A stretch of 64,000 nucleotides of DNA from Candidatus Izemoplasmatales bacterium (GTDB taxonomy: Bacteria; Bacillota_I; Bacilli_A; Izemoplasmatales; Hujiaoplasmataceae): the NCBI GenBank assembly GCA_050949045.1, contig JBMNEZ010000001.1, positions 160,001 through 224,000 of the forward strand, written 5' to 3'. The translations under genes were made by a program, and so were the position numbers. Under the pieces are notes generated by a model, which searched no databases, was not told where the DNA came from, and saw only the letters and a program-made list of their open reading frames with translations. Every line of letters begins with the position of its first letter. Within the stretch, counting starts at the first letter, position 1. Shown piece after piece: positions 17,829 through 32,186 of this stretch.

Positions 17829-18806
17829 ATGGCAAATATCGTTGAAGCGGTTCCCAATTTCAGCGAGGGACGCGATCAGGAAAAAATCAAACGGTTGATG
17901 AGCGTTTTTTGCCATCATCCGGACATTAAAATCGTCAACTGCGAACCCGACGCCGACTACAATCGGACAGTGGTCACTTTGCTTGGCGACGGTGAAAAGA
18001 TGGTTTTTGCCCTGATGGATCTTGTCGGTGCCGCAGTCGATGAAATCGATCTCAATCACCACAAGGGAGAGCATCCCCGCATGGGGGCTGTCGATGTCAT
18101 CCCCTTTATTCCGATCGAGGGCGTCGCCATGAAAGAATGTGTCGCTTACGCGGAAAAACTAGGATCAATGATCAGTGACAAATACCAGATCCCCGTGTTT
18201 TTATATGCCGAAGCCGCTCGAAATGAGGAAAGGGCGGCGCTTCCGAATATCCGCAAGGGCGAATTCGAAGGCATGAAGACGAAAATCACCGAGCCAAAGT
18301 GGCATCCTGATTTCGGTGAGGCGAAAATTCACCCGACTTTTGGAGTTGTCGCCGTCGGCGCAAGACCGTTCTTGATCGCCTATAACATCGATCTCGCAAC
18401 TAAAGACGAAGAGATAGCGAAAACAATCGCCAAGGCGATCAGAAAGTCAAACGGCGGTTTCCAATACATTCAGGCCGGGCCTGTGTTTCTCGAAAAACGA
18501 GGGCATGTCCAAGTGACGATGAATATCCTTGACTACAAAAAGAACCCTATTTACCGGATCTTTGAGACTGTCAAGATGGAAGCCAGGAGATATCACGTCA
18601 AAGCGACCGGAGCCGAGATCGTCGGGATGATTCCCAAAGATGCGCTCATTAGATCTTTGGAATATTATCGTGCAATTGGTGATTGCCAAGCAGATTTGAT
18701 CAAAGCTGATCTTGACGGGATTGCCGAAGCCGCTTGTAAACATCTATTGCTTAGAGATTTTTCCAAAGCGAAGATCATTGAATCCTATCTTGAGGACCGC
18801 CGATGA
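17829..18806 (+). CDS. ftcD: Glutamate formimidoyltransferase
   Basis: VPNFSEGR, YNRTVVT, HPRMGAVDVIPF and GARPFLIAYN motifs. Confidence 0.94.
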   Translation: MANIVEAVPNFSEGRDQEKIKRLMSVFCHHPDIKIVNCEPDADYNRTVVTLLGDGEKMVFALMDLVGAAVDEIDLNHHKGEHPRMGAVDVIPFIPIEGVAMKECVAYAEKLGSMISDKYQIPVFLYAEAARNEERAALPNIRKGEFEGMKTKITEPKWHPDFGEAKIHPTFGVVAVGARPFLIAYNIDLATKDEEIAKTIAKAIRKSNGGFQYIQAGPVFLEKRGHVQVTMNILDYKKNPIYRIFETVKMEARRYHVKATGAEIVGMIPKDALIRSLEYYRAIGDCQADLIKADLDGIAEAACKHLLLRDFSKAKIIESYLEDRR

Positions 18807-20059
18807 AAGCAAGTCTGTTAATCCATAATATCAGCCATCTCTATACGCAAGCCAACGAACCTCCGGTTCGGGGCAAAGCTATGAAAGACATCGTCTGTCT
18901 CGATGATGCTTTTGTTGCTTGTGATAATGACCGCATCATCGGTTTTGGCACCGGAGAATTCAATGACTATGTTTCAAACACCACGCTTCTTTTTGATGCA
19001 AAGGGGCTAATCCTTTTACCGGGATTGATTGATTCCCATACCCATCTTGTTCATGGGGGATCGCGCGAAGACGAGTTTTCACTGAAAATTAAAGGAGTCT
19101 CCTATTTTGATATTTTGAACCGTGGCGGCGGGATTCTGAGTACGGTCGCCAAGACCAGAAACGCGAGTTTTAAAGAATTATACGATAAAGCTCGGGAGTC
19201 GCTTGACGAAATGCTTCTCTATGGTGTGACCACCATTGAAGCTAAATCTGGTTACGGGCTCGATCTTGAAACCGAGATCAAACAACTAAAAGTCGCAAAA
19301 AAACTCAATCATGACCATCCAATCGACATCATCTCCACCTATCTTGGAGCCCATGCCGTTCCCAAAGAGTTTCTGAATAGAAAACAGGCATTTGTCTCGA
19401 AAGTCATCCAAGATCTTGAAATCATCAAGGACAAGGAACTCGCTAGATTTGTCGATGTCTTTTGTGAAGAGGGTGTTTTTGGCCTCGAAGAAACGGAAGC
19501 CATCATCAAGCGCGCCAAGGAACTGGGATTTATTCCCAGACTCCACGCCGATGAGATGCATCACCTTGGCGGAGCTGGACTTGGAGTTGATTATGAGGCG
19601 GCGAGCGTTGACCATCTGATGGCGATCAGCGATAGGGATATCGAAAAACTTGCCCATAGCAAAACGATCGCCAACTTGTTGCCGGCAACCTCGTTCTTTC
19701 TAAACAAAGACTATGCGCCAGCCCGAAAATTGATCGACAAAGACGCTGCCGTTGCGATTGCGAGCGACTACAATCCCGGCTCGACGCCTTCGGAGAACTT
19801 TCAACTGACGATGCAATTGGCGGGCATCAAACTGAGGATGGATCCTAAGGAGATCTTGACGGCTTCGACGATCAACCCTGCTTATCTTCTCGGGATTCAC
19901 AACGAATGTGGCAGTATTGCCATCGGCAAAAAAGCTGATCTGGTCTTGTTTAAGGCCAAGAACATTGATTATTTAATCTATCATTACGGTATCAACCATA
20001 CCGAGCACGTTTTCAAAAACGGCCGCATAGTGGTCAAAAACCGGCAACTCTGTTACTGA
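18803..20059 (+). CDS. hutI: Imidazolonepropionase
   Basis: DSHTH, GGGILSTV, EAKSGYG, HADE and SDYNPG motifs. Confidence 0.95.
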   Translation: MKASLLIHNISHLYTQANEPPVRGKAMKDIVCLDDAFVACDNDRIIGFGTGEFNDYVSNTTLLFDAKGLILLPGLIDSHTHLVHGGSREDEFSLKIKGVSYFDILNRGGGILSTVAKTRNASFKELYDKARESLDEMLLYGVTTIEAKSGYGLDLETEIKQLKVAKKLNHDHPIDIISTYLGAHAVPKEFLNRKQAFVSKVIQDLEIIKDKELARFVDVFCEEGVFGLEETEAIIKRAKELGFIPRLHADEMHHLGGAGLGVDYEAASVDHLMAISDRDIEKLAHSKTIANLLPATSFFLNKDYAPARKLIDKDAAVAIASDYNPGSTPSENFQLTMQLAGIKLRMDPKEILTASTINPAYLLGIHNECGSIAIGKKADLVLFKAKNIDYLIYHYGINHTEHVFKNGRIVVKNRQLCY

Positions 20060-20070
20060 TGGAGGTTGGA

Positions 20071-20718
20071 ATGAAACTTAGTGAACTGACAATCAGCAAA
20101 TTTCTTGATAAAATCGATTCGAAGTCACCGACGCCCGGTGGAGGCTCTGTCAGCGCTTTGGCCGCAGCCATCGGTGTGGCACTGGTGCGAATGGTAGGGC
20201 ATTTCACAATCGGTAGAAAACGCTTTGAAGCCCTCGATGAATCCGTGAAAGCAGAATTCATCTGCTTGTTTTCCGAGATGGAGAGCATAAAAAACCAATT
20301 TATTGACGCCATTGATCGGGACACCGAAGCCTATAATGAGGTCATGAAAGCCTACAAGTTGCCTAGTGACGATCAGAAAGCACTTGAAATCAGAAACAAA
20401 GCAATTCAAGAGGCAACGATTGGCGCAATTGAAGTTCCTCTCGGTGTGACAGAGACCGCCTTTGCCTTTTTAAGCAGAATCGCGCCGCTTGTCAGTTATG
20501 GCAACCCGAACACGATTTCTGATATGGGAGTTGGGATCATATTGGTCGCGAGCGCCATCGAAGGAGCGATTCTGAATGTCAAAATCAACCTTGCCGGTCT
20601 TGAGGACCGGAACTTGGCTATCAACTATCAAGAGAAAGTTCACCATATACTTGAACAAACGAATCTCCTGCGGGATGGACTGATCAAATCCATCCATGAG
20701 ACATTAAAAATCGAATAA
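20071..20718 (+). CDS. fchA: Formiminotetrahydrofolate cyclodeaminase
   Basis: SPTPGGGSVSAL, IDRDTEAY, GNPNTISD and NVKINL motifs; SD GGAGG before ATG 20071. Confidence 0.88.
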   Translation: MKLSELTISKFLDKIDSKSPTPGGGSVSALAAAIGVALVRMVGHFTIGRKRFEALDESVKAEFICLFSEMESIKNQFIDAIDRDTEAYNEVMKAYKLPSDDQKALEIRNKAIQEATIGAIEVPLGVTETAFAFLSRIAPLVSYGNPNTISDMGVGIILVASAIEGAILNVKINLAGLEDRNLAINYQEKVHHILEQTNLLRDGLIKSIHETLKIE

Positions 20719-20903
20719 AGAAGGATAACGTTAATTTTTTATTGACATAGCCGATGTCGCAGCCAGACCTTACAAAGTGTTTTTTGAAATGATCAAGTAT
20801 CCGTTCATAACCAAAAGATAGCGGTTTTTCACGAAAAATCAAGGCATAAATGGGAGAGATCCCATTTTTATTATAGAAAAGAATAGTAGAGAAATCAGAT
20901 TGC

Positions 20904-20932
20904 TTGACATATGACAACCTGTCATATAAAAT
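20904..20932 (+). promoter_or_regulatory. SigA promoter with a palindromic TetR operator in the spacer
   Basis: TTGACA-17 nt-TAAAAT; palindrome ATATGACA-acc-TGTCATAT at 20909-20927. Confidence 0.8.
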
Positions 20933-20959
20933 GATAACGAAAAATAAGAGGTGATTTTT

Positions 20960-21592
20960 TTGCCGTCAAAGACATTTATGAACCTTCCCAAAGTGAAACA
21001 GGAGCGCATTTTGGAAGCGGCCAAAAAAGAGTTCTCAGAAGCAATGTTCTCCGATGTTTCAATCAACAGAATTGTCAAGGCTGCTTCAATATCAAGAGGA
21101 AGCTTCTATATGTATTTTTCAGACAAACATGATTTGTTGATATACTTGCTTGAAAATTTCCAAAAACAATTCGACCAGAAATTAAAGTCGCTCGGTGAGG
21201 TCGCCGGTGGTAATATCAAGAAACTTATACTCGGACTACACGATTATCTGTTTACGGCGATAGCGGCGGAAGAAAACTGCAATTTCCTCACTAACTACTT
21301 TACCTATTCGCTATCTGCTTCTGTGAAAAATCACCATCAGGCAAGATCAATGGTTAGCTCGATGACAAAGTTGAGAGAATCGTTGCTTGAATATGTGGAC
21401 AAGAATCAGTTTGACAAACACTACGAAGACGACTTGGAAACAATCATCGATGCTCACCTCATCATTTTAAAACATACGCTCGCAAAAGCGTATCTTCAAA
21501 AAACCAACAGTAAGAAGAGCCGCAAAGATTTAGAGAAACTTCTTGGGATTCTCAAAGACGGCTATCAGAAAAAAGAGGAAAAAAATGCTTAA
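20960..21592 (+). CDS. TetR-family regulator
   Basis: HTH SINRIVKAASISRGSFYMYF; TTG start inferred from SD GAGGTG. Confidence 0.9.
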   Translation: MPSKTFMNLPKVKQERILEAAKKEFSEAMFSDVSINRIVKAASISRGSFYMYFSDKHDLLIYLLENFQKQFDQKLKSLGEVAGGNIKKLILGLHDYLFTAIAAEENCNFLTNYFTYSLSASVKNHHQARSMVSSMTKLRESLLEYVDKNQFDKHYEDDLETIIDAHLIILKHTLAKAYLQKTNSKKSRKDLEKLLGILKDGYQKKEEKNA

Positions 21593-23798
21593 ACTGATTG
21601 GAATTGACAAGAGCTATACAACCGGGTCTTTCACTCAAAAAGCTTTGAGCAAAGTGACACTCGACTTCAGAAAAAATGAGTTTGTCACTGTTTTGGGGCC
21701 TTCTGGGTGCGGTAAGACGACTTTGCTCAACATCATCGGGGGTCTCGATCACTTTGATCGGGGAGATTTGATCATCAGCGGCAAGTCGACCAAGGATTTT
21801 AGCGAAGTCGAATGGGACATGTATCGCAACAATTCGATCGGCTTCATTTTTCAAAACCACAATCTAATTCAGCATCTGAATGTACTCCAGAACGTCGAGA
21901 TGGGTATGACTTTGAGCGGGGTGAACGCCCACGAGCGGAAGCGCCGTGCCCAAGAAGTACTAGAACAGGTCGGTCTTCGCAATCATATGCACAAGCGCCC
22001 TAATCAACTTTCTGGCGGGGAATCGCAAAGAGTAGCCATTGCACGCGCTCTGGCAAATAATCCAGATGTCGTCCTCGCAGATGAGCCGACCGGTTCGCTC
22101 GACTCTGTCACCAGTATCCAAATTCTTGACCTTGTCAGTAAAATTGCCAAAGACAAACTGGTGATCATGGTTACCCATAACGCCGAAATGGCCGAGCGGT
22201 ACGCCACGAGAATCATCAAGCTGAAAGACGGCGAAGTAATCGACGACACGAATCCGGTCAAAGAGGATGATGAACTCAAAACCGAGTTCAGTTTAAAGAA
22301 AACTGCCATGAGTTTCAAGACTGCGGTCATCTCATCTTTGAATAACATCAAAACCAAGCTTGGAAGGACTTTTCTGACAGCTTTTGCCGGCAGTATCGGC
22401 ATTATCGGCATCGCGCTGATTATGTCGCTGTCAAATGGGATGGATCAGGAGATTGCGAACTTTGAACGCGACACCCTCTCGGGTTATCCGGTCGCAATCA
22501 CCAACTCCAAATTCGACTTTCAAAAGATTATGGAAATGGAAGAGGATGATCTAGTCTCCTTTCCTGAAACAAACTACGCTACCGCCTTTGACGAGAACCG
22601 CCTACAACAATTCTTTTCCCCGAACATCATCACCGATGATTATGTCGAATACGTCAATGACTATGTGACGAACATCGCTCCCGAAACGATCGCTGGCGTC
22701 AAGTATGTTCGGAAGATGAATCTGTCCTTGTTGCGGTATGACGAAGAAAGCGACGCCTATATCGAAATATACAATGAAAGAAAAACGGCAATACCTCAAA
22801 GCTCTGGCAATGTCTTTGGCTTTGTTTCAAGCCGGTTCACGCTCCTGCCGGATGGCAATGTGTATGGAAATAACTACGATTTGATCTACGGTGCTTATCC
22901 GGACAATAATCTTGATGAAGGCAAAATTCAGGTCGTTATTGTTGTTGATGAATATAACAGAATCTACAAATCAACGCTAGAGCGCCTTGGTTATGACGTT
23001 GATGCTCAAACTGAATTCATGTTTCAAGATATCGTCGGCAGGAATTTCAAATTGTTTGTCGGTGTCTATGATGAGTCGACCAGCGGTCTCGATCAAGCGC
23101 TTGATGTGGAGATCTCCGGCATCATCCGGATCAAACAGGGATCTAATGTCCATCTGCTTTATAACGGTTTTGGCTATACCTCCGATATTGTGGAATATCT
23201 GGCCGCAACATTTCCGAGTGAAGTCGGCGACATCAGCGGCATTTATATCTATCCTTTCAGTTTTGAGGAAAAAGACGAATTGAAAACCTACCTTGACGCC
23301 TACAACAACGAGTTTGAACCAGGTAGTGACGAGAGGATTGATTACGTCGATCAGGCAGCGACATTCACGGCGATGGCGAGCGGTATCGTTGACACGATTT
23401 CGATTGTTCTTGTCGCCTTTGCATCGATCTCTCTCATCGTCTCTTCGATCATGATCGCGATCATCACCTACATCTCCGTTTTGGAACGCACCAAGGAGAT
23501 TGGCGTCTTGCGGGCTTTAGGCGCCAGGAAGAAAGATATCGCCCGGGTTTTCAATGCCGAAAACATCCTGATTGGCTTTGCTTCGGGGATTGTCGGTATC
23601 TTGGTCGCCGCACTTTTGATAATCCCGATCAATCTGATCATTGAAAAACTGGCAGAAATGGGCAATGTCGCGAAACTATCGCCATTGCATGCGATCGCGT
23701 TGATTGTGATAAGCGTCTTTCTTGCTCTTGTGGCCGGGTTGATTCCTGCGCGGATGGCCTCAAAGAAAGATCCTGTCATCGCCCTTCGTACTGAATAA
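21585..23798 (+). CDS. MacB/FtsX-like ABC transporter (ATPase-permease fusion)
   Basis: Walker A GPSGCGKT; LSGGE; ADEPT; C-terminal ERTKEIGVLRALGA and DPVIALR. Confidence 0.93.
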   Translation: MLKLIGIDKSYTTGSFTQKALSKVTLDFRKNEFVTVLGPSGCGKTTLLNIIGGLDHFDRGDLIISGKSTKDFSEVEWDMYRNNSIGFIFQNHNLIQHLNVLQNVEMGMTLSGVNAHERKRRAQEVLEQVGLRNHMHKRPNQLSGGESQRVAIARALANNPDVVLADEPTGSLDSVTSIQILDLVSKIAKDKLVIMVTHNAEMAERYATRIIKLKDGEVIDDTNPVKEDDELKTEFSLKKTAMSFKTAVISSLNNIKTKLGRTFLTAFAGSIGIIGIALIMSLSNGMDQEIANFERDTLSGYPVAITNSKFDFQKIMEMEEDDLVSFPETNYATAFDENRLQQFFSPNIITDDYVEYVNDYVTNIAPETIAGVKYVRKMNLSLLRYDEESDAYIEIYNERKTAIPQSSGNVFGFVSSRFTLLPDGNVYGNNYDLIYGAYPDNNLDEGKIQVVIVVDEYNRIYKSTLERLGYDVDAQTEFMFQDIVGRNFKLFVGVYDESTSGLDQALDVEISGIIRIKQGSNVHLLYNGFGYTSDIVEYLAATFPSEVGDISGIYIYPFSFEEKDELKTYLDAYNNEFEPGSDERIDYVDQAATFTAMASGIVDTISIVLVAFASISLIVSSIMIAIITYISVLERTKEIGVLRALGARKKDIARVFNAENILIGFASGIVGILVAALLIIPINLIIEKLAEMGNVAKLSPLHAIALIVISVFLALVAGLIPARMASKKDPVIALRTE

Positions 23799-23924
23799 CA
23801 AACTGATCAAAAGATCGGTTTCTTATTACTCTGTTTTAAAGATAGAGTCGTTTTGTTAGTTTGACATAGTCTATATTTTGGCTGTCGATTGTGATATAAT
23901 ACAAAATTATTAAAATTAAGGAGC

Positions 23925-24638
23925 GTGACCATGACTGACATCAGGGCGAAGATTGCGGAAATTCTTAACAAAGAAGAAGATTTCACCGATGAGTTCGCTG
24001 TTCCCAAAGATGATTTGATCGAGACACACGGCGAATACGAGTATGAAGAACTTTATTCCGACATCTATGTGATAATCAAAAACATTGAAGATTTTTATGG
24101 CGATCATTCCCATCCCAAAGCCGCCGCGCTCCTTGAATCTTTCTTGCTTGAGACGATGATCGTTCTTAAAGAAGATCCGGAGGTAATTGTCGTCGAATCC
24201 GGCGATTTCTTTTGCCGGTCGACGAGTTTCACTCCTGACTCTAAAGCAGTGATGCACCTTTTTGAAAATGTCGTCTGGATCAACTCGATGGCTGAACTCT
24301 ACAACCAGGCGCTCACCGATGTCGGATTGTTGCCAATGGAATTGGGAATCGGTGTCGTCACTTTCCCTCGCGAGGCGATCAATGAGGAATTGGAAGAGGA
24401 AAGATATCCCGGATCGGACATTGAATTCGACTATGGCATTGATTTTCAAAACACGGCAATGAAATTGGCGATTATCGCCAATACTGAAGGCAGGGAAACG
24501 ATTATCGTCAACGATATGGCTTATGATTTTTTGCTTGAAGTTGACAGAGCTTTCTTTGAGGAAAATCTTGTCAAGGAGTATCTCAAAGAAGAGGAAATGA
24601 CTGTGTTTCACGGGAACATCGTTACGGATGACATTTAA
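23925..24638 (+). CDS. Acidic protein with a degenerate class III nucleotide cyclase (PycC-like) fold
   Basis: Recognised by eye: YVIIK (normally FxDI), SGD, LGIGV, NTAMKL (normally NxASKL), IIVNDMAY, FHGNIV; extended -10 TGaTATAAT at 23892-23900. Confidence 0.62.
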   Translation: MTMTDIRAKIAEILNKEEDFTDEFAVPKDDLIETHGEYEYEELYSDIYVIIKNIEDFYGDHSHPKAAALLESFLLETMIVLKEDPEVIVVESGDFFCRSTSFTPDSKAVMHLFENVVWINSMAELYNQALTDVGLLPMELGIGVVTFPREAINEELEEERYPGSDIEFDYGIDFQNTAMKLAIIANTEGRETIIVNDMAYDFLLEVDRAFFEENLVKEYLKEEEMTVFHGNIVTDDI

Positions 24639-24661
24639 TCAGTCAGAAACAGGAGGAAGCC

Positions 24662-25870
24662 ATGGATTTATTCAAAAAGTGCTATGATTTCACGACCGTT
24701 GATGAGTACAAAGCGATGGGTATATATCCTTACTTTCACTCTCTTGAGACTAAACAGGATATCGAGGTGATGATGGAAGGCAAAAGGCGGATTATGATCG
24801 GCTCGAACAACTATCTCGGCTTGACTGGCGATGAGCGAGTCATCAATGCCGGCATCAAGGCGATTGCGGAGTTTGGCTCGGGAGTATCCGGCTCCCGGTT
24901 TTTGAACGGCACACTCACGACCCATATAACCCTAGAAAATGAATTGGCGGAATTTTTAAACAAAGAAGCCTGTCTCACCTTTTCGACCGGATTTCAAACC
25001 AACCTCGGCATCATTTCTGCCATCGCGGGCAGAAATGACATCATCTTTTGTGATCGGGAAAACCACGCCTCAATCTACGACGGGGCAAAACTGAGTTATG
25101 CGACCATGGTAAGATATCGTCATAACGATATGAAGGATTTGGAAAAGAAACTCAAGGAGGCTGACCCGGGCAAAGGCAGATTGATCATTACCGACGGTGT
25201 CTTTTCGATGTCCGGAGATATTTGCCGGCTTCCGGAAATCGTTGCTTTAGGCAAGAAATACCACGCCAGAGTGATGGTCGACGATGCCCATGGCCTCGGT
25301 GTGCTAGGTGAACACGGCAGAGGCACCGCCGAACATTTTAATCTTGAAAACGAAGTTGACATCATCATGGGCACTTTCTCGAAATCGCTTGCCAGCCTCG
25401 GCGGCTATATGGCAGCCGAACATGCTGTTGTCAACTATGTCAAACATAAGTCAAGACCATTTATCTTTTGCGCCGCAATCACTCCGGCAAATGCGGCGGC
25501 CGCCTTAACTTCGCTTAGAATCCTTAAAGCCGAACCGGAACGTCCGAAAGCCCTGTTGGCGATTGCCGCTTATATGCGCAAAAGGCTGCTTGAAAAAGGG
25601 CTCAAGATTCTCGAGTCTTCGATTGCCCCGATCATTCCCATATATACCTACACCGCGCTCAGGACACTCGTTGCCTGCAAGATGCTCTATGATCGCGGTG
25701 TCTATGTTAATCCGGTGTTGCCACCGGCAACCCCTGAGGGCGAATGCCTGATCAGAACAAGTTACACAGCTACCCATACCAAGGAATTGATGGATGAAGC
25801 GGCCGACATCATCGCCGACGTCCTCCATAATCTTCCCGAAAACGACGCTGAATTGTTGGGTCAACTATGA
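24662..25870 (+). CDS. spt: PLP alpha-oxoamine synthase, Bacteroides-type serine palmitoyltransferase-like
   Basis: GIYPYF, GSNNYLGLT, GSRFLNGT, STGFQTNLG, HASI, DDAHG, MGTFSKS (PLP Lys), VNPVLPPA and RTSYTATH motifs. Confidence 0.78.
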   Translation: MDLFKKCYDFTTVDEYKAMGIYPYFHSLETKQDIEVMMEGKRRIMIGSNNYLGLTGDERVINAGIKAIAEFGSGVSGSRFLNGTLTTHITLENELAEFLNKEACLTFSTGFQTNLGIISAIAGRNDIIFCDRENHASIYDGAKLSYATMVRYRHNDMKDLEKKLKEADPGKGRLIITDGVFSMSGDICRLPEIVALGKKYHARVMVDDAHGLGVLGEHGRGTAEHFNLENEVDIIMGTFSKSLASLGGYMAAEHAVVNYVKHKSRPFIFCAAITPANAAAALTSLRILKAEPERPKALLAIAAYMRKRLLEKGLKILESSIAPIIPIYTYTALRTLVACKMLYDRGVYVNPVLPPATPEGECLIRTSYTATHTKELMDEAADIIADVLHNLPENDAELLGQL

Positions 25871-26673
25871 AAAGAAGTGATCAAGTAGTGGTTGTTACCG
25901 GCGCTTCCAGCGGTATCGGTCTGGAAACAGCCTCCCTTTTGTCGTCAAAAGGGATGAAGGTCTATGGATTGTCGCGCTCAAAGCCTAGAGGAAAATATTC
26001 CTTTAACCACCTCATCGCTGATGTCACCTCGATTGAGACGCTTCAAAAAGCCGCAGACCTCATCAGAGAATCCCAAGGTGGCATTGATGTGCTCATCAAT
26101 TGTGCCGGCATCGGGATTGGTGGCGCCGTCGAGGAGACCGATGAAGCAGATTATGACAATCTCTTTAATGTCAATGTCAAAGGTGTCTTTCAGACTACCA
26201 AGGTTTTTTTACCTCTGCTTCGCGAGGGAAAGGACAAGAAAATCATCAATATTGGTTCCATTGCCGGCATCTTACCGATACCTTTCCAAACTTTCTATTC
26301 GATGTCAAAGGCGGCTATCCAATCTTTTTCGGAAGCTTTGCGAAATGAACTGAGACCATTTGGTATCGAAGTGACCACCGTGCTTCCCGGAGACACCAAA
26401 ACCGCATTTACCAGTAATCGGAAAAACAATCCAATCTCAGAAGAATCCCCTTATGCCGAGAGACAAGCCCGCTCGCTCAAAAAGATGGAGATTGACGAGC
26501 AAACGGGAAAATCTCCAATATCGGTAGCCAATGTTATTTTTAAACTGATTAACAGAAGACGCTTGCCGGTCCAGGTCGCCATCGGATTTGAATACAAGCT
26601 GTTTGTCTTTTTGAACCGGATCCTGCCTAAAAGGCTGGTAAACTGGATTCTCTACCAAATATACGGAAAATGA
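25867..26673 (+). CDS. Short-chain dehydrogenase/reductase, candidate 3-ketodihydrosphingosine reductase
   Basis: TGASSGIG, catalytic YSMSK, PGDTKTAFT; ATGA overlap with the upstream gene. The SDR call is firm; the substrate is inferred. Confidence 0.75.
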   Translation: MKRSDQVVVVTGASSGIGLETASLLSSKGMKVYGLSRSKPRGKYSFNHLIADVTSIETLQKAADLIRESQGGIDVLINCAGIGIGGAVEETDEADYDNLFNVNVKGVFQTTKVFLPLLREGKDKKIINIGSIAGILPIPFQTFYSMSKAAIQSFSEALRNELRPFGIEVTTVLPGDTKTAFTSNRKNNPISEESPYAERQARSLKKMEIDEQTGKSPISVANVIFKLINRRRLPVQVAIGFEYKLFVFLNRILPKRLVNWILYQIYGK

Positions 26674-26926
26674 TCAACAAAACAAACAGAGCCACTTTTC
26701 AATTCTTTGTAAGGCAGAAATGTTTAGAGGGATGCGGATAGTCGCAAGAAATACCTCTGACAATTATCCATCATTATTTGAGAGTTTCTTAGAAGTCGTT
26801 TAAAACGACGTAGCGGTGTTAACGAGGAAAGTATCGATCGCCATTTAATGTCAGGGGATGTCGTCTCGAACGCTTTTTTGATAAACTGAATAATTTGTTT
26901 TCAAGAAAATTCTCATCCGAGGAGTT

Positions 26927-27499
26927 GTGATTGTGTACCGAAGACTGTTTGCGGACTATCTTCCTGTCAACGAACAGGAAGAAAAGGACAAGGAACTCAT
27001 CCTATCTTTTATCAACAAGAATAATGATGCTCTTAGCAGAGACAATCTGACTGCCCATGTGACTGCCTCTGCTTTCGTTATCAACAAAACCATGGAGAAA
27101 ATCCTCTTCGTGTACCACAAAATCTATAATTCCTGGTCTTGGGTCGGTGGTCATAACGACGGCGATCCGGATTTGCTCAAAGTCGCGATCAAAGAAGCGA
27201 AGGAAGAAACGGGTGTCACCGAGATTGAACCCTATCAAGACTCGATCTTCACGCTTGATGTGATCTATGTTCCTAACCATATCAAAAAAGGCAAATACGT
27301 TTCCGATCATCTGCATCTAAATGCGGCGTTTTTATTGTTCGCTGATGATCTCCAGAAATTAACAGTCAATCTTCAAGAGACAAAAGATGTCCGGTGGTTT
27401 TATATTAGCGAGGTTCTCGATTATGTGAGCGAGCCAAGAATGATACCGGTATATCAGAAAGCATTTTCGAAAATAAAAGCGATCCGAAACGGTATTTAA
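26927..27499 (+). CDS. NUDIX hydrolase
   Basis: Nudix box GGHNDGDPDLLKVAIKEAKEETG. Confidence 0.9.
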   Translation: MIVYRRLFADYLPVNEQEEKDKELILSFINKNNDALSRDNLTAHVTASAFVINKTMEKILFVYHKIYNSWSWVGGHNDGDPDLLKVAIKEAKEETGVTEIEPYQDSIFTLDVIYVPNHIKKGKYVSDHLHLNAAFLLFADDLQKLTVNLQETKDVRWFYISEVLDYVSEPRMIPVYQKAFSKIKAIRNGI

Positions 27500-27803
27500 A
27501 CTGTTGGCATTATTGGGACTCAACCACAAGGGTCCAGATTATGTTTATCAAAATGATTTTTCTATTACATTTTCGTGAAAATGAACCTTATCCGCCGTTT
27601 TAGATTGTTGGCAATTCCCGAGACTGACGATTCCTGTTGGCGGGTGTAGGCTTTCAAGTCAAGGGATGTAAACGACAATAGAATATTTGAATAACGTCAC
27701 AAATTGGCAAAACCTGTTCAATCAAAAAGATACTAAAGAGAGCATGGGAGCATTTCACCTGGTATTGTGATTTTAAAACATATATTTAGGAGTTGAAACA
27801 AAT

Positions 27804-28220
27804 ATGAAATCTTATCGCAAGGAACTATGGTTCCATACCGACAAAAGGCGGGCCTACATCAACATCACTCATCAAGTTGAGGCCTGCATTAGGGAAAGCG
27901 GCGTCAGCGAAGGCCTGGTTTTGGTCAACCCGATGCATATCACCGCCAGTGTTTTCATCAACGATGATGAAAGTGGTCTGCATCATGATTTTGAGAGATG
28001 GCTTGAAAAACTCGCCCCCGAGAAACCATATAGTCAATATGAGCACAATGGCTATGAGGATAATGCGGATGCCCATTTAAAAAGACAGATCATGGGCAGG
28101 GAAGTAGTCTGTGCAATCACCGCTGGGAAACTTGATTTCGGCACCTGGGAACGGATCTTCTATGCCGAGTTCGACGGCAAGCGGGACAAGCGCGTGCTTG
28201 TCAAGATTATTGGCGAGTAA
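27804..28220 (+). CDS. yjbQ: YjbQ/UPF0047 family protein
   Basis: [19 protein letters not shown] and [16 protein letters not shown] motifs. Confidence 0.9.
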
Positions 28221-28281
28221 GTTGCCAGGAAAAAATATGGTGTAGATAGATTTTGATCAAGAACAAAGACTCAAAGTGTTA

Positions 28282-28311
28282 AAAAACTCTCGGATGATCC
28301 GAGAGCTTTTC
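28282..28311. terminator. Bidirectional terminator between yjbQ and the LtaS-like gene
   Basis: CTCTCGGA-tga-TCCGAGAG flanked by A and T tracts. Confidence 0.7.
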
Positions 28312-30291
28312 TTATTTGCCGGTTTTGTTTTTCTTGGATGACAGATAGAGACTGTTGACTTTGTTGAGGCGGTCCATCACCTTCATTGCTTGTAAGCGGA
28401 AAGCCTCGATAGCCTGATCGTCAGCCGAATAGGGATCGTAGATAATCTCATAGCCATCGTTCGAGAACAGGGCATCGGTGAAGATAGATGAAAGTTTATG
28501 GGAGTAGAAAATCTGTTCTGATTCAAGGAACACCGAATCACCGAGATACTTGTCCTCATTGAAGGGGATGCCGAGGAGATCAAGGAGGGTGGGAACGATC
28601 ACATAGGGAGAAGTGAACTTGGTGATGCTGGTTGATTCGGTCTCAAAGTAATCCAGATATGTCTTTGTGAGGAGAGGATTGTAGATGCACATGAAAGTTT
28701 CATACATTTCGCTCCGGTAATACTCTTCGGCGGTCGTGTCGAAGATAGCGAGTGCCAGTTCATGATAGTAGACATTGTGATCACCATAGATGACGATGAT
28801 CGTATCTTCAATCAGGTGGTTTTCCTCCAAAGAAGCTAAAATTTTGCCAAGAGCAACGTCAAAATCCATGATCGCCGCCTGATAGTGTCTGATCCTGAGT
28901 TGATTTAACTCGGTGCTATCATAAAGAATGTTGAACCAAGTTCCGTCTTCCTTGGCTTGATCGATCAAATCAAAGTATCCGAGTTCCTCAAACAAAACTT
29001 GGTTCTCGGGTCCGTAATTATAAGGACCATGTGAAGAAAAAGAGGTCCAAAAAGAATAGAAGGGCCGATCAGTGTCGATTAATAAGGGCAGGATTTGATC
29101 GAGAGTGATGGAATCGAGAGTGTAATCACCGTCCCATTTTGGCAACGGCAGATCGGGATTAATCTCGTCATGAAAATAACAGTTTTCAAAACCAAGCATC
29201 GGCATCAAATCGCCGCGACCGTAAAAAGAAGGCTCATTGTCATGGAAATAAGAAGTGTTGTATGTGTCATTCAGTAATTCGGCGAGAGAGAACGAGAAAT
29301 CATAATCATAGAGCGAAGGGCTGAAGTTTACTGAAGGGTAGTTGCCGGCAATTGCAATCATCTCGGATTGATTGGTCTTGTTTTCCGAGTAGTTGTTGGC
29401 GAAATACAGCCCTTCGCGGGTCAGCCGATAAAGATTAGGCGTCAGATGCTCGTTGACGGCGAACGATTGTCCGGATTCGAGCATGATCGTGATGATGTTT
29501 TTGCCTTCAAGAAGACCGAAGAAAGGCGATTTTTCAAATACCAGCAGAGGGCCGGTGGTCTTTGTTGATTTGGTTGTCTCGATTGGAACTTTAGGTTCAG
29601 TCGTCACTAGGGGTTCTATCGGGATAGTCGCAGTCGGTTCCGGTTCACTGTCATCGATGAAATGGCTCAAAGCGATGATGTTTTGTGATTCCTTGAAATA
29701 GTATCCAAGTAGCCCATAACTTTCCAGATTCGCTCTTTTGAAAGCGGTAATATTCTCAATCTCATTGTATCTTTTCATCAAGGGAGTTTCGCTGGTGAAA
29801 TAACCGACAAGAACTAGGGCGATGAAAGCAAAAGCGACCAACGCGTTACGATAATAATTGGTGATTTTCGGACGTTTTTTGATGATGGTAATCAAAACGA
29901 TATTCACCGCGATAAAGACGAGCAATACAATAGTACCGGTGATAATGCTCGGGATGGAGAGAAAGTCGAAGTTGAAAACAGCTTGGGCTTCGTCGAGCAA
30001 CTGGAGTTGCTGGAGAGTGAACAGGTCGAAATTGACACCGTACATGGTCGCATTAATTAGAAACAATGACAAGATGAAAGTAAAAACAAGCGATAGATAA
30101 GCTAACGACAGTTTTAAAGATTTGATTAGGAAAATGACTGATGCCAGTCCCAAAGCTAACATAAAGTCGATAATAAGAAATTTGGGAAGGAAAGTGAAAT
30201 TGACCCAGCGGAACGTGATCGCCTCAATAATGATGAAGAACAAGAGGAAGCAAAGGATCACGCTGCCTTTTTGTAAAAGCAGTCTTTTCAT
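28312..30291 (-). CDS. LTA synthase / sulfatase-family membrane protein
   Basis: About 5 N-terminal TMs; MLES; catalytic-Thr-like NKTNQSE; SHGPY; YGDH. Confidence 0.85.
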   Translation of the reverse strand: MKRLLLQKGSVILCFLLFFIIIEAITFRWVNFTFLPKFLIIDFMLALGLASVIFLIKSLKLSLAYLSLVFTFILSLFLINATMYGVNFDLFTLQQLQLLDEAQAVFNFDFLSIPSIITGTIVLLVFIAVNIVLITIIKKRPKITNYYRNALVAFAFIALVLVGYFTSETPLMKRYNEIENITAFKRANLESYGLLGYYFKESQNIIALSHFIDDSEPEPTATIPIEPLVTTEPKVPIETTKSTKTTGPLLVFEKSPFFGLLEGKNIITIMLESGQSFAVNEHLTPNLYRLTREGLYFANNYSENKTNQSEMIAIAGNYPSVNFSPSLYDYDFSFSLAELLNDTYNTSYFHDNEPSFYGRGDLMPMLGFENCYFHDEINPDLPLPKWDGDYTLDSITLDQILPLLIDTDRPFYSFWTSFSSHGPYNYGPENQVLFEELGYFDLIDQAKEDGTWFNILYDSTELNQLRIRHYQAAIMDFDVALGKILASLEENHLIEDTIIVIYGDHNVYYHELALAIFDTTAEEYYRSEMYETFMCIYNPLLTKTYLDYFETESTSITKFTSPYVIVPTLLDLLGIPFNEDKYLGDSVFLESEQIFYSHKLSSIFTDALFSNDGYEIIYDPYSADDQAIEAFRLQAMKVMDRLNKVNSLYLSSKKNKTGK

Positions 30292-30395
30292 CGCGATACT
30301 CCTTAATTGAGAGTATTATAGCATTATCTTGTTTATTAATACACCAAATGCATTTATATTGGCAAGAAATATTTGTTATTTCCAGTAAAAAAGGG

Positions 30396-32186
30396 TCAGA
30401 TTCCGACCCTTTGTTTCAACAATTCAAGTTGCACTGCCAATGGTTCTGGCAACAAGTCTCCATATATTTTGTAGTGTTCCTCAATCAAGGCGATTTCCGC
30501 TTTCCAGGCATTCTTGTCGATCTCGAACAGTTGGTCGATTACTTCCCGGTCGATTTCGAGTCCTTCAAGATCGAGTTCTCCCGGCGCGGGGATGATGCCC
30601 ACCGGCGTGGGCGATCCCTTCGTCGTTCCTTCTGATTGCTCGAATACCCATTTGAGAACGCGGCTGTTTTCGCCGAAACCCGGCCAAAGATACTTTCCAT
30701 TCTTGGATTTGCGGAACCAGTTGATGCAGAAAATGAGCGGCAGTTTATCCTTCGAGGTGAGTTTACCCATCTTCAGCCAGTGCTCGATGTAATCGGCGAT
30801 ATGATAACCGATGAAAGGCAACATCGCAAAGGGATCGCGTCTGATTTTGCCGATTTGATCAGAGATGGTCGCGGCGGTGATCTCCGATCCCATGATCGAA
30901 CCGAGGAAGACGCCGTGTTCGTAATCGTAGCTTTGATAGATCAGAGGGATTGTCGTCGGCCTGCGGCCGCCAAACAGCATCGCCGCGATCGGAACTCCTT
31001 CGGGGTCTTCCCAGTTGTCGGCGATCGAGGGACAATTCCTTGCTGGAGCGGTGAAGCGGCAATTCGGATGGGCTGCTTTTGTCCCCAGATCGGGATACCA
31101 GTCGTTGCCGCGCCAGTCGATCAGGTGCGCCGGGGGCGTCTTAGTCATATCCTCCCACCAGACATCACCGTCATCGGTGAGAGCGACATTGGTGAAAATA
31201 GTGTCTTTCTCGATCGTCCTCATCGCATTCGGATTTGAATCCCACGAGGTTCCGGATGCGACTCCGAAAAATCCCGCCTCGGGATTGATGGCGTAGAGCC
31301 TGCCATCATCCTTGTATCTCAACCAAGCGATGTCATCGCCGATGGTTTCGGCTTTCCATCCTTGAAGCGTTGGCTTGATCATCGCCAAGTTGGTTTTTCC
31401 ACAGGCGCTCGGGAAGGCGCCGGTGATATATTTGACCTTTCCCTTTGGAGAAGTGAGTTTCAGTATCAGCATATGCTCTGCCAGCCAGTTTTCCCGGCGT
31501 CCCTGACAGGAGGCAATCCTCAGCGCGAAGCATTTCTTGCCGAGAAGCGCATTGCCGCCGTATCCGGAACCGTAGGACCAAATCATGTTTTCTTCAGGAA
31601 AATGCGCGATGAACTTGTTTTCAATCGGCGTGCATGGCCATAGGGGATCTTCTTGGCCGGGCAGAAGCGGATAGCCGACAGAATGGAGCCCCTTGACAAA
31701 ATCAGCGCCTTGATTGATGAGAGCGAGTACCTTGGCCCCGGTTCTCGTCATAATATGCATATTCAAAACGACATAAGGACTATCGGTTATTTCGACGCCG
31801 ATCTTGGAAAAGAGCGAACCGATCGGTCCCATTGAGAAGGGGATGACATACATGGTCCTTCCACGCATGGAGCCTTGATAATGCCGGTGCATCTCTTCTT
31901 TGAGAATATCGGAACGGATCCAGTTGTTGGTGGGGCCAGCGCTTTTTTCTTCCGCTGTCGCAATGAAAGTCCGTTGTTCAATCCTGGCGACGTCGGAAGG
32001 GTCGGTCCGGAACAAATAACAATTCTTACGGTACTTCTCATTGATTTTGATCGCTTTTTTGGCTTTTACCTGAGCCTGTATCAACTCGTCGTACTCTTTT
32101 TTTGTTCCGTTCCACCAGATGATTTTGTCCGGTTGGCACCAGGCTGCGGTCTCATTGATCCAATTTTTAAGGTGCTTGTTATTCAT
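30396..32186 (-). CDS. pckG: Phosphoenolpyruvate carboxykinase (GTP)
   Basis: GSGYGGNALLGKKCFALR, FPSACGKTNLAM, GDDIAW and NPEAGFFG motifs; start inferred from SD GGGAG. Confidence 0.95.
   Translation of the reverse strand: MNNKHLKNWINETAAWCQPDKIIWWNGTKKEYDELIQAQVKAKKAIKINEKYRKNCYLFRTDPSDVARIEQRTFIATAEEKSAGPTNNWIRSDILKEEMHRHYQGSMRGRTMYVIPFSMGPIGSLFSKIGVEITDSPYVVLNMHIMTRTGAKVLALINQGADFVKGLHSVGYPLLPGQEDPLWPCTPIENKFIAHFPEENMIWSYGSGYGGNALLGKKCFALRIASCQGRRENWLAEHMLILKLTSPKGKVKYITGAFPSACGKTNLAMIKPTLQGWKAETIGDDIAWLRYKDDGRLYAINPEAGFFGVASGTSWDSNPNAMRTIEKDTIFTNVALTDDGDVWWEDMTKTPPAHLIDWRGNDWYPDLGTKAAHPNCRFTAPARNCPSIADNWEDPEGVPIAAMLFGGRRPTTIPLIYQSYDYEHGVFLGSIMGSEITAATISDQIGKIRRDPFAMLPFIGYHIADYIEHWLKMGKLTSKDKLPLIFCINWFRKSKNGKYLWPGFGENSRVLKWVFEQSEGTTKGSPTPVGIIPAPGELDLEGLEIDREVIDQLFEIDKNAWKAEIALIEEHYKIYGDLLPEPLAVQLELLKQRVGI

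Follow-up and report, generated by a model that had tools for sequence, protein, structure and literature searches.

Most discussion of bacterial sphingolipids concerns Bacteroidota, sphingomonads and further Gram-negative lineages. In eukaryotes and Bacteroides, serine palmitoyltransferase (SPT) acts first and a 3-ketodihydrosphingosine reductase (KDSR) second, and the Bacteroides protein BT_0972, a short-chain dehydrogenase/reductase (SDR), has been described as such a reductase (Lee et al. 2022, PMC9278070, available sections); whether BT_0972-type SDRs are truly sphingolipid reductases is treated as an open point in the available text of PMC11087976. The Caulobacter-type ceramide pathway, as outlined in the accessible parts of PMC11087976 and PMC11334938, uses Spt, bCerS and CerR in turn. 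The second of these papers, a Black Sea survey, widens the carriers of Spt-like genes to 40 phyla; the accessible portion of its main text names neither Firmicutes, Bacillota or Tenericutes nor Izemoplasma or Clostridia, and its 40-phyla supplement may already include the Bacillota clade described below. The papers listed as joining 'Izemoplasma' and 'sphingolipid' were, as judged by title and abstract, gut-microbiome or host studies. Here we examined a 64,000-bp stretch of DNA (the window; positions 160001-224000 of a closed 1,356,138-bp genome, 98.3% complete) from an Izemoplasmatales bacterium, in which three tightly packed forward-strand open reading frames (ORFs A, B and C; Table 1) had been proposed, from the letters alone, to form a sphingoid-base operon in a probably wall-less relative of the Bacillota. 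We found that B is placed by family scores and phylogeny in the SPT clade of the alpha-oxoamine synthases (AOS) and that it is paired with C, an SDR, across the order. The locus is a real conserved two-gene cassette, joined by a subclade-specific third gene, and most likely makes sphinganine-type bases; the pathway is a known one, here in a new lineage and a new form of operon.

B matched Pfam PF00155 (Aminotran_1_2; 189.8 bits) and has the AOS/aminotransferase class I-II fold. Its best NCBIfam model was NF047600 (SerpalmtaseCFB, the Bacteroidota-type SPT) at 517.8 bits, about 120 bits above any non-SPT family; the other models gave 397.9 (beta-proteobacterial SPT), 381.7 (Kbl), 368.9 (BioF), 257.4 (ALAS) and 219 bits (CqsA-type). 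Against PDB entries, the SPT of Sphingobacterium multivorum (SmSPT; 3a2b/8guh) scored 402 bits (E 2e-119, residues 5-387), compared with 277-292 bits for Sphingomonas SPTs, 231-241 for Kbl (1fc4, 231), 211-218 for cysteate acyltransferases (CFATs), about 181-196 for BioF and 111 for CqsA. The original prediction had likened B to the Bacteroides SPT rather than to Kbl or BioF, and both sets of scores bear this out, as does the tree described below; the motifs it had cited, GIYPYF (residue 20), GSRFLNGT (77), STGFQTNLG (108) and GTFSKS (237), are all present. Using the SmSPT residue list in the available text of PMC10196870, in which the paper's number equals the B number plus 3 (checked on Lys244 = K241), 11 of the 12 active-site residues were found to be identical in B, namely N49, G77, S78, H135, S182, D207, A209, H210, T238, S240 and K241, the counterparts of Asn52, Gly80, Ser81, His138, Ser185, Asp210, Ala212, His213, Thr241, Ser243 and Lys244. 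The sole differing position is Met271, which is I268 in B, and the contact made by Met271 is through its main chain.

The active site also bears on what the pair would make. The amino acid taken by B might be other than serine (glycine, alanine, cysteate or another), or its acyl chain might be an odd one, so that C would reduce a 1-deoxy, nor- or sulfono-type base and the product would be a non-canonical long-chain amino-alcohol lipid. SPTs accept alanine and glycine at low efficiency (PMC10196870, available text), an AOS followed by an SDR is the logic of sulfonolipid synthesis too (PMC11211663 and PMC13692747, in the parts available), and B both scores under the SPT cut-off and belongs to a Bacillota clade that is a separate branch within the SPT-like clade. 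We nevertheless regard a non-canonical base as unlikely: the serine-contact set of SmSPT is kept at 11 of 12 positions, the CFAT-type substitutions are absent, and the CFAT structures score 211-218 bits against 402 bits for SPT. By the residues that separate CFATs from SPTs (PMC13692747, available part), the pocket of B is SPT-type, with Ser78, G-F-Q and Asn114, and not CFAT-type, with Ala82 and F-G-Y, the Lys280 position being matched by eye only. An assignment of B as a CFAT/SulA enzyme was rejected on these pocket residues and on the same structure scores.

The phylogenetic position of B was evaluated in a tree of 68 AOS rows (IQ-TREE, LG+G4; a quick run, then 1000 ultrafast bootstraps) that comprised B, 59 proteins hand-picked from 111 AOS of the related loci, Kbl and BioF of E. 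coli K-12, the genome's own second AOS and five other second copies. SPTs in this tree are defined by gene neighbourhood and not by assay, CFAT, ALAS and CqsA lie outside it, and BioF is a long branch. B fell within an SPT-like clade of 59 rows (support 100/100) that also holds all the Bacillota sequences and deltaproteobacterial and Nitrospirota enzymes. The genes of the latter two groups adjoin those for a 377-aa GNAT (bCerS-like), an epimerase-family reductase (CerR-like) and PAP2, and Spt-bCerS-CerR loci with such a neighbourhood have been described (PMC11334938, as far as available). Within this clade the Bacillota sequences formed one group (40 rows, 100/99), and the Izemoplasmatales and Acholeplasmataceae together (100/97) were nested among Clostridia. 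E. coli Kbl and the genome's second AOS formed a Kbl clade (95/94) apart from B. The phylogeny that had been proposed as a check on the original prediction thus put B among enzymes of the SPT type, apart from Kbl and BioF, in a 68-row tree that holds no assayed SPT or ALAS.

These data contradict the idea that B is simply a housekeeping Kbl or BioF with an unrelated SDR as its neighbour, to which we give next to no credence. It draws on the public names of B's close relatives, which are only 'aminotransferase' or '8-amino-7-oxononanoate synthase', and on the sizeable scores of B to the Kbl and BioF models. However, B lies below both cut-offs (381.7 < 460 for Kbl; 368.9 < 426.45 for BioF), it is split from both enzymes with 100/100 support, and the SDR is coupled to it in 76 of 77 genomes, as detailed below. 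Furthermore, the second AOS (G000:C1:761509-762681) passes the Kbl cut-off (490.8 > 460) and adjoins the L-threonine dehydrogenase gene tdh (402 > 380), and a search of the closed genome for bioA and bioB found neither. Given this tdh-kbl pair elsewhere in the genome and the failure to find bioA or bioB, B is neither the organism's Kbl nor a BioF.

C matched Pfam adh_short at 155.9 bits and carries TGASSGIG at residue 11, NCAG, S131 and Y144-x3-K148 (YSMSK); the Rossmann TGxxxGxG and the Ser-Tyr-Lys positions were invariant in 30 SPT-linked SDRs. The best NCBIfam model for C was KdsR, NF049977 (BT_0972-type 3-ketodihydrosphingosine reductase; 232.2 bits), and C was the top match to this model in its genome (231.7 bits, against 111.2 for the next protein), in keeping with the claimed resemblance of this SDR to BT_0972. 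The motifs on which that claim had been built were likewise all found, GIGIGGAVE (81), IPFQTFYSMSK (138), PGDTKTAFTSNR (174) and RSLKKME (202). KdsR was also the family matched most often by 30 SPT-adjacent SDRs from Bacillota loci, 29 of which reached E <= 1e-55 against it. When 14 control genomes were searched, the KdsR cut-off was passed in one, and 13 have any match, B. thetaiotaomicron among those 13.

The linkage of the two genes was evaluated in 151 genomes of the order, the genome under study included, with SPT-like genes called at 443 bits or more and C-like SDRs at E <= 1e-40. SPT scores in this sample were cleanly bimodal, with Kbl copies at 395 bits or less. An SPT-like gene was found in 78 of the 151 genomes and a C-like SDR in 84; 77 genomes have both, one (82% complete) has the SPT-like gene only and seven have the SDR only, five of these seven genes lying at contig edges. 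In 76 of the 77 genomes with both, the SDR stands directly downstream of the SPT gene on the same strand, and in the single exception the pair is split over two contigs, as read by hand from the coordinates. This gene adjacency supports a functional link between the SPT and the SDR. By family, the SPT-like gene occurs in 58/70, 19/70 and 0/10 genomes of families f1, f2 and f3 of the order. In a wider sample of 399 genomes of the phylum, all of one class and searched at E <= 1e-135, it was found in 38, including 3/3 of f1, 6/13 of f2, 21/31 of f4, 4/42 of f8 and 3/3 of f25, and three closed f4 genomes also have the overlapping pair. The other 25 families of that sample have no SPT-like gene, among them two families of 0.7-1.2-Mb genomes (0/54 and 0/89). 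Outside the order, Acholeplasmataceae carry the pair, as do many Clostridia from gut, rumen and digesters, and protein searches name three cultured carriers, Hujiaoplasma nucleasis, 'Mariniplasma sp. M4Ah' (Peloplasma aerotolerans) and Mycoplasmatota bacterium WC30. When 80 related loci were compared, the SDR stood beside the SPT gene in 44 of the 69 Bacillota-clade loci and in none of the 11 others; a stricter ORF filter on the same loci had counted 39 adjacent SDRs, missing 5. What is new is a conserved, overlapping spt-SDR pair, present in 76 of the 151 order genomes, in Acholeplasmataceae and in many Clostridia. Separately, 59 of 61 sampled genomes from the phylum of one related locus (L075) carry an SPT-like gene at 532-580 bits; that phylum is probably not Bacteroidota, because none of these genomes passes the NF047600 cut-off of 640 bits.

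Overall, family assignment, tree and linkage support the original prediction of a sphingoid-base operon in a probably wall-less Bacillota relative, with its products being predictions. B would condense L-serine with a long-chain acyl thioester (C14-C18 acyl-CoA or acyl-ACP) to a 3-ketosphinganine-type base, which C, using NAD(P)H, would then likely reduce to an amino-diol of the sphinganine type; here we infer substrates, cofactor and product. The steps would follow the order seen in eukaryotes and Bacteroides, SPT and then KDSR, and not that of Caulobacter. We consider it probable that the B and C pair makes sphinganine-type bases. The acyl chains may come from scavenged fatty acids, since a search of the closed genome for PF00109 ketoacyl synthases (FabF/FabB-type) found none, the ketoacyl synthase III families not having been searched, and the genome has one acyl carrier protein (78.5 > 71 bits) and one protein resembling a long-chain acyl-CoA ligase (294 bits, below its cut-offs).

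Several findings weigh against this interpretation and are gathered here. The 517.8 bits of B lie below the NF047600 equivalog cut-off of 640, and the 232.2 bits of C lie below the KdsR cut-off of 400, with a margin of only 32 bits over an uncharacterised SDR subfamily (200.3). The shortfall of B places it outside strict membership of the family but is not disqualifying, because SPTs in a bCerS/CerR neighbourhood also fall short, one with bCerS-like and CerR-like neighbours scoring 573.3 bits; none of the 151 order genomes passes the cut-off. Characterised SPTs and KDSRs were not among the tree rows, and the link of B and C to them runs via hidden Markov model and PDB scores only. The sequence of B does not reveal its amino-acid and chain-length specificity, and that of C alone leaves its substrate unfixed, because several unrelated SDRs are able to reduce 3-keto long-chain bases (PMC11211663, available part). 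An adjacent SDR is missing from 25 of the 69 Bacillota-clade loci, about five of which end at contig ends.

The N-acylation step weighs in the same direction, in that the pair has no ceramide synthase that follows its distribution across the order. None had been recognised in the window, and indeed none lies there. When the search for bCerS and CerR suggested with the original prediction was extended to the genome, it returned a distant bCerS-like GNAT that does not track the pair and, for CerR, generic epimerases only. One Christensenellaceae locus has the order SPT, SDR and bCerS-like GNAT, and this GNAT matches (E 1.3e-22) a 370-aa homologue in the genome under study, here called X (G000:C1:1299877-1300986), which lies 1.1 Mb away; X in turn matches, at 1.7e-40, a GNAT encoded beside the SPT gene in a deltaproteobacterial genome. 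In the order, 44 of the 78 genomes with an SPT-like gene and 22 of the 73 without one have an orthologue of X, which is missing from two closed genomes that do carry the SPT-like gene. X was thus rejected as a dedicated ceramide synthase, because its distribution does not follow the pair and closed SPT-bearing genomes lack it. A CerR-type reductase was rejected as well; the best match in the genome to an SPT-adjacent epimerase gave 57.4 bits and 30% identity, the level of a generic epimerase. With regard to X itself, it is a double-GNAT protein in an operon with a DUF819 membrane protein, overlapping by 11 nt (G000:C1:1299877-1302162; L083:1486-3775), and an X-like domain (28-31% identity) lies inside open frames of 671-943 aa in several relatives.

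The lipid records of cultured relatives offer no direct support either. The available text of the Hujiaoplasma nucleasis description lists phosphatidylethanolamine, phosphatidylglycerol, phosphatidylcholine and phosphatidylserine, with no mention of 'sphingo' or 'ceramide', and that of the Peloplasma aerotolerans description (PMC11122141) is without mention of sphingolipids. The same accessible text reports 3-hydroxy C18:0 (4.1%) and 3-hydroxy C16:0 (1.8%) acids for P. aerotolerans M4Ah, a cultured Mollicute. Such acids are unusual in an organism without lipopolysaccharide, and an SPT-like enzyme from Acholeplasmataceae shares 75% identity with a protein of this strain (as 'Mariniplasma sp. 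M4Ah'). Ceramides of Acholeplasma axanthum and Bacteroides carry 3-hydroxy acids of this kind in amide linkage, so that the finding is a lead and not evidence. Sphingolipids of A. axanthum were reportedly studied in the 1970s, with no link to the present pair shown. Two sphingolipid reviews did not mention Acholeplasma or Mycoplasma, and A. axanthum was not named among the top 120 relatives of an Acholeplasmataceae SPT.

ORF A, the first gene of the operon, encodes an acidic protein (54 D/E against 16 K/R) without a match in Pfam or NCBIfam. The family is rare: 5.8 billion proteins yielded 14 clusters, and 1.84 billion representatives yielded 52 relatives, of which 11 reached E <= 1e-30. An AlphaFold2 model built from 17 sequences reached pLDDT 80.3 and pTM 0.74, with residues 12-37 and 151-165 poorly modelled, and Foldseek returned 113 PDB matches at E <= 0.001, the top ones all cyclases; 7r65 (E 3e-7), 2w01 and 1wc3 led, with E values of 3e-7 to 1e-5 and TM scores of 0.5-0.65. 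The third-ranked Atlas neighbour cluster has PF00211 in 27% of its members, and among distant relatives of ORF A, PF00211 was matched by 9 of 16, above the cut-off in 6. In alignment A3, the first metal-binding aspartate (FVD in the PF00211-positive relatives) is I, M, T, L, T or A in all six close members, and the second metal site (the aspartate of G-D) varies as D, D, D, E, P and I. Because the metal-binding aspartates are replaced or variable, no cyclase activity is predicted for ORF A. The family occurs in 28 of the 151 order genomes, directly upstream of the SPT gene in 24; the remaining four give no reading, owing to separate contigs, an unassembled SPT gene or one weak match. ORF A is thus an operon accessory of one subclade and not part of the core. 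We would guess that this catalytically dead-looking protein is probably an accessory or regulatory partner.

A signalling-type fold within the operon raises the further idea that the pair makes no membrane lipid but a secondary metabolite or diffusible signal, for instance a CqsA/CAI-1-like autoinducer of the alpha-amino-ketone or amino-alcohol class, with ORF A belonging to a signalling module. The lack of linked genes for a ceramide synthase or a head-group enzyme would fit, as would the TetR regulator and MacB-like exporter upstream, an arrangement kept in 15 of the 80 loci. We hold this to be very improbable, because CqsA-type scores are far lower for B (219 bits in NCBIfam, 111 bits against the PDB entry), ORF A lacks the metal-binding aspartates and occurs in 28 genomes against 78 with an SPT-like gene, and the pair is broadly inherited, like a core lipid trait.

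The coordinates of the locus are collected in Table 1. The three genes had been described as tightly coupled, with a 23-nt gap and then an ATGA overlap, and the coordinates confirm the 23 nt between A and B and the ATGA shared by B and C. By this overlap, C is read as translationally coupled to B. An AGGAGG stands 5 nt ahead of the ATG of B. For ORF A, AAGGAG (23918-23923) stands 7 nt before the ATG at 23931 and 1 nt before the GTG at 23925; because of this 7-nt spacing, and because the database copy of the protein is 235 aa, the ATG is more likely the start. The hairpin upstream likely closes the TetR/MacB-like ABC unit and marks the 5' boundary of the operon. That the genes lie 'behind one promoter', as had been proposed, can be kept in so far as the hairpin and the promoter-like sites are in place; these are consensus matches only, and promoter-like sites are no commoner in the region (3) than in shuffles (5.8 +/- 2.5), so that the single promoter is a candidate only. 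Within 20000-31000, no Rfam family was matched at E <= 0.1. Metatranscriptome contigs from four runs (depth 2-5) cover parts of A, B and C, one of them spanning the B/C junction (25619-26003). They are a weak sign of expression, given the low depth and possible DNA carry-over, and they cannot rank the genes or show transcript ends; likewise, the lack of contigs over 23500-23862 or 26767-27008 in these low-depth data is uninformative on transcript ends.

Table 1. Features of the locus and its surroundings, in window positions.
Feature	Coordinates	Strand	Description
hutI, then FchA-like gene	18803-20718		imidazolonepropionase (427.7 bits, above cut-off), then cyclohydrolase-family gene
TetR gene	20951-21592		regulator
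MacB-like ABC/FtsX exporter gene	21543-23798		fused, 751 aa
Terminator-like hairpin	23800-23821	+	9-pair stem, weak T tail; consensus match only
Promoter-like region	23889-23916	+	TTGTGA-16-TAAAAT, 9/12 consensus match; candidate only
Extended -10-like TGATATAAT	23892-23900	+	overlaps promoter-like 23889-23916; consensus match only
ORF A	23931-24638	+	235 aa, acidic, predicted class III nucleotidyl-cyclase fold; alternative GTG start 23925 (237 aa)
ORF B	24662-25870	+	402 aa, pyridoxal-phosphate-dependent AOS, SPT clade, cofactor lysine K241
ORF C	25867-26673	+	268 aa, classical SDR, KdsR/BT_0972-like group
NUDIX gene	26927-27499
YjbQ gene	27804-28220
Membrane protein gene	28312-30291	-	659 aa, sulfatase/LtaS-like domain; Pfam Sulfatase 84.7 bits, LtaS model only 50 bits

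The nearest loci, with B 77-90% identical, are titled Izemoplasmatales, Tenericutes, Mycoplasmatota or Bacilli, consistent with the Bacillota-relative lineage that had been suggested for this DNA. Near-identical DNA was found in anaerobic-digester and bioreactor metagenomes. The lack of a cell wall in Izemoplasmatales is taken from the lineage description (PMC10470597, available part). Fifteen of the 80 related loci repeat the order TetR, ABC and SPT gene, and in relatives the hutI/FchA-like block also stands before the TetR-ABC-SPT block. A D-2-hydroxyacid dehydrogenase gene (about 306 aa) follows the SDR in 14 related loci (e.g., L067:8070-8990 and L072:8066-9025), where the window has the NUDIX and YjbQ genes instead. 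The gene for the sulfatase/LtaS-like membrane protein lies 1.6 kb downstream, and this phosphoglycerol-transferase-like enzyme could act on a lipid acceptor in a likely wall-less host. In three Acholeplasmataceae loci (L023:4138-6001, L027 and L036), a patatin-like phospholipase and a PAP2 phosphatase/transferase are encoded directly upstream of the SPT-SDR pair; apart from such PAP2 and patatin genes upstream in three Acholeplasmataceae loci, no further lipid genes were found beside the pair in L022, L023, L033 and L072.

If the pair does make sphinganine-type bases, long-chain-base synthesis extends to wall-less Bacillota relatives apparently without a fatty-acid synthase of their own, the locus provides the strongest gene-neighbourhood support so far for BT_0972-type SDRs as sphingolipid reductases, and non-Bacteroidota candidates join the gut sphingolipid producers. 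A bolder and rather doubtful extension is that spt-kdsR is the core of a CerR-independent, eukaryote-order route that is old in a large clade of Gram-positive lineage made up of Izemoplasmatales, Acholeplasmataceae, and Christensenellales and Oscillospiraceae from gut and rumen. On this view, sphingolipid production in wall-less bacteria and gut Clostridia, with long-chain bases built from scavenged fatty acids, would have gone unrecognised, and in one Izemoplasmatales subclade the dead cyclase-fold protein would have become a dedicated partner or regulator of SPT, a bacterial equivalent of control by ORMDL or the small subunit.

Compared with known systems, B resembles the S. multivorum SPT (3A2B/8GUH; NF047600) in being a soluble-type AOS of about 400 aa with 11 of 12 active-site residues shared, the cofactor lysine included; it differs in scoring below the curated cut-off, in its separate Bacillota branch and in a gene that stands in an operon with a reductase, and its activity is predicted. 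C resembles BT_0972 KdsR (PMC9278070, available sections) as a classical SDR, the BT_0972-type proteins being about 267 aa with TGxxxGxG and the S-Y-K triad, but scores 232 bits against the cut-off of 400 and overlaps the SPT gene in this lineage. With the sulfonolipid pathway (CFAT/SulA/CapB and 3-ketocapnine reductase; PMC13692747 and PMC11211663, in the parts available), the pair shares its two steps, in which an AOS carries out the condensation and an SDR then reduces the 3-keto group, although the pocket of B is SPT-type and CFAT structures score only 211-218 bits. An AOS adjoining a dehydrogenase is also seen in Tdh-Kbl, but C is a classical SDR and not the Zn-dependent Tdh, and the genuine pair lies elsewhere in the genome. 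The modelled fold of ORF A matches class III cyclases (PycC cUMP synthase, 7R65; Cya2, 2W01; CyaC, 1WC3); unlike them, it has no Pfam match, its metal aspartates are replaced and it is a single stand-alone domain before an SPT gene. Finally, B falls in the clade of the first enzyme of the Caulobacter-type pathway, and the Bacillota clade has loci with SPT, GNAT, epimerase and PAP2 genes as its sister groups. In contrast to that pathway, no CerR-like gene was found in the genome under study, and its bCerS-like gene is neither linked to nor co-distributed with the pair; the classical SDR in the place of the reductase would imply that reduction precedes acylation, unlike the Caulobacter order.

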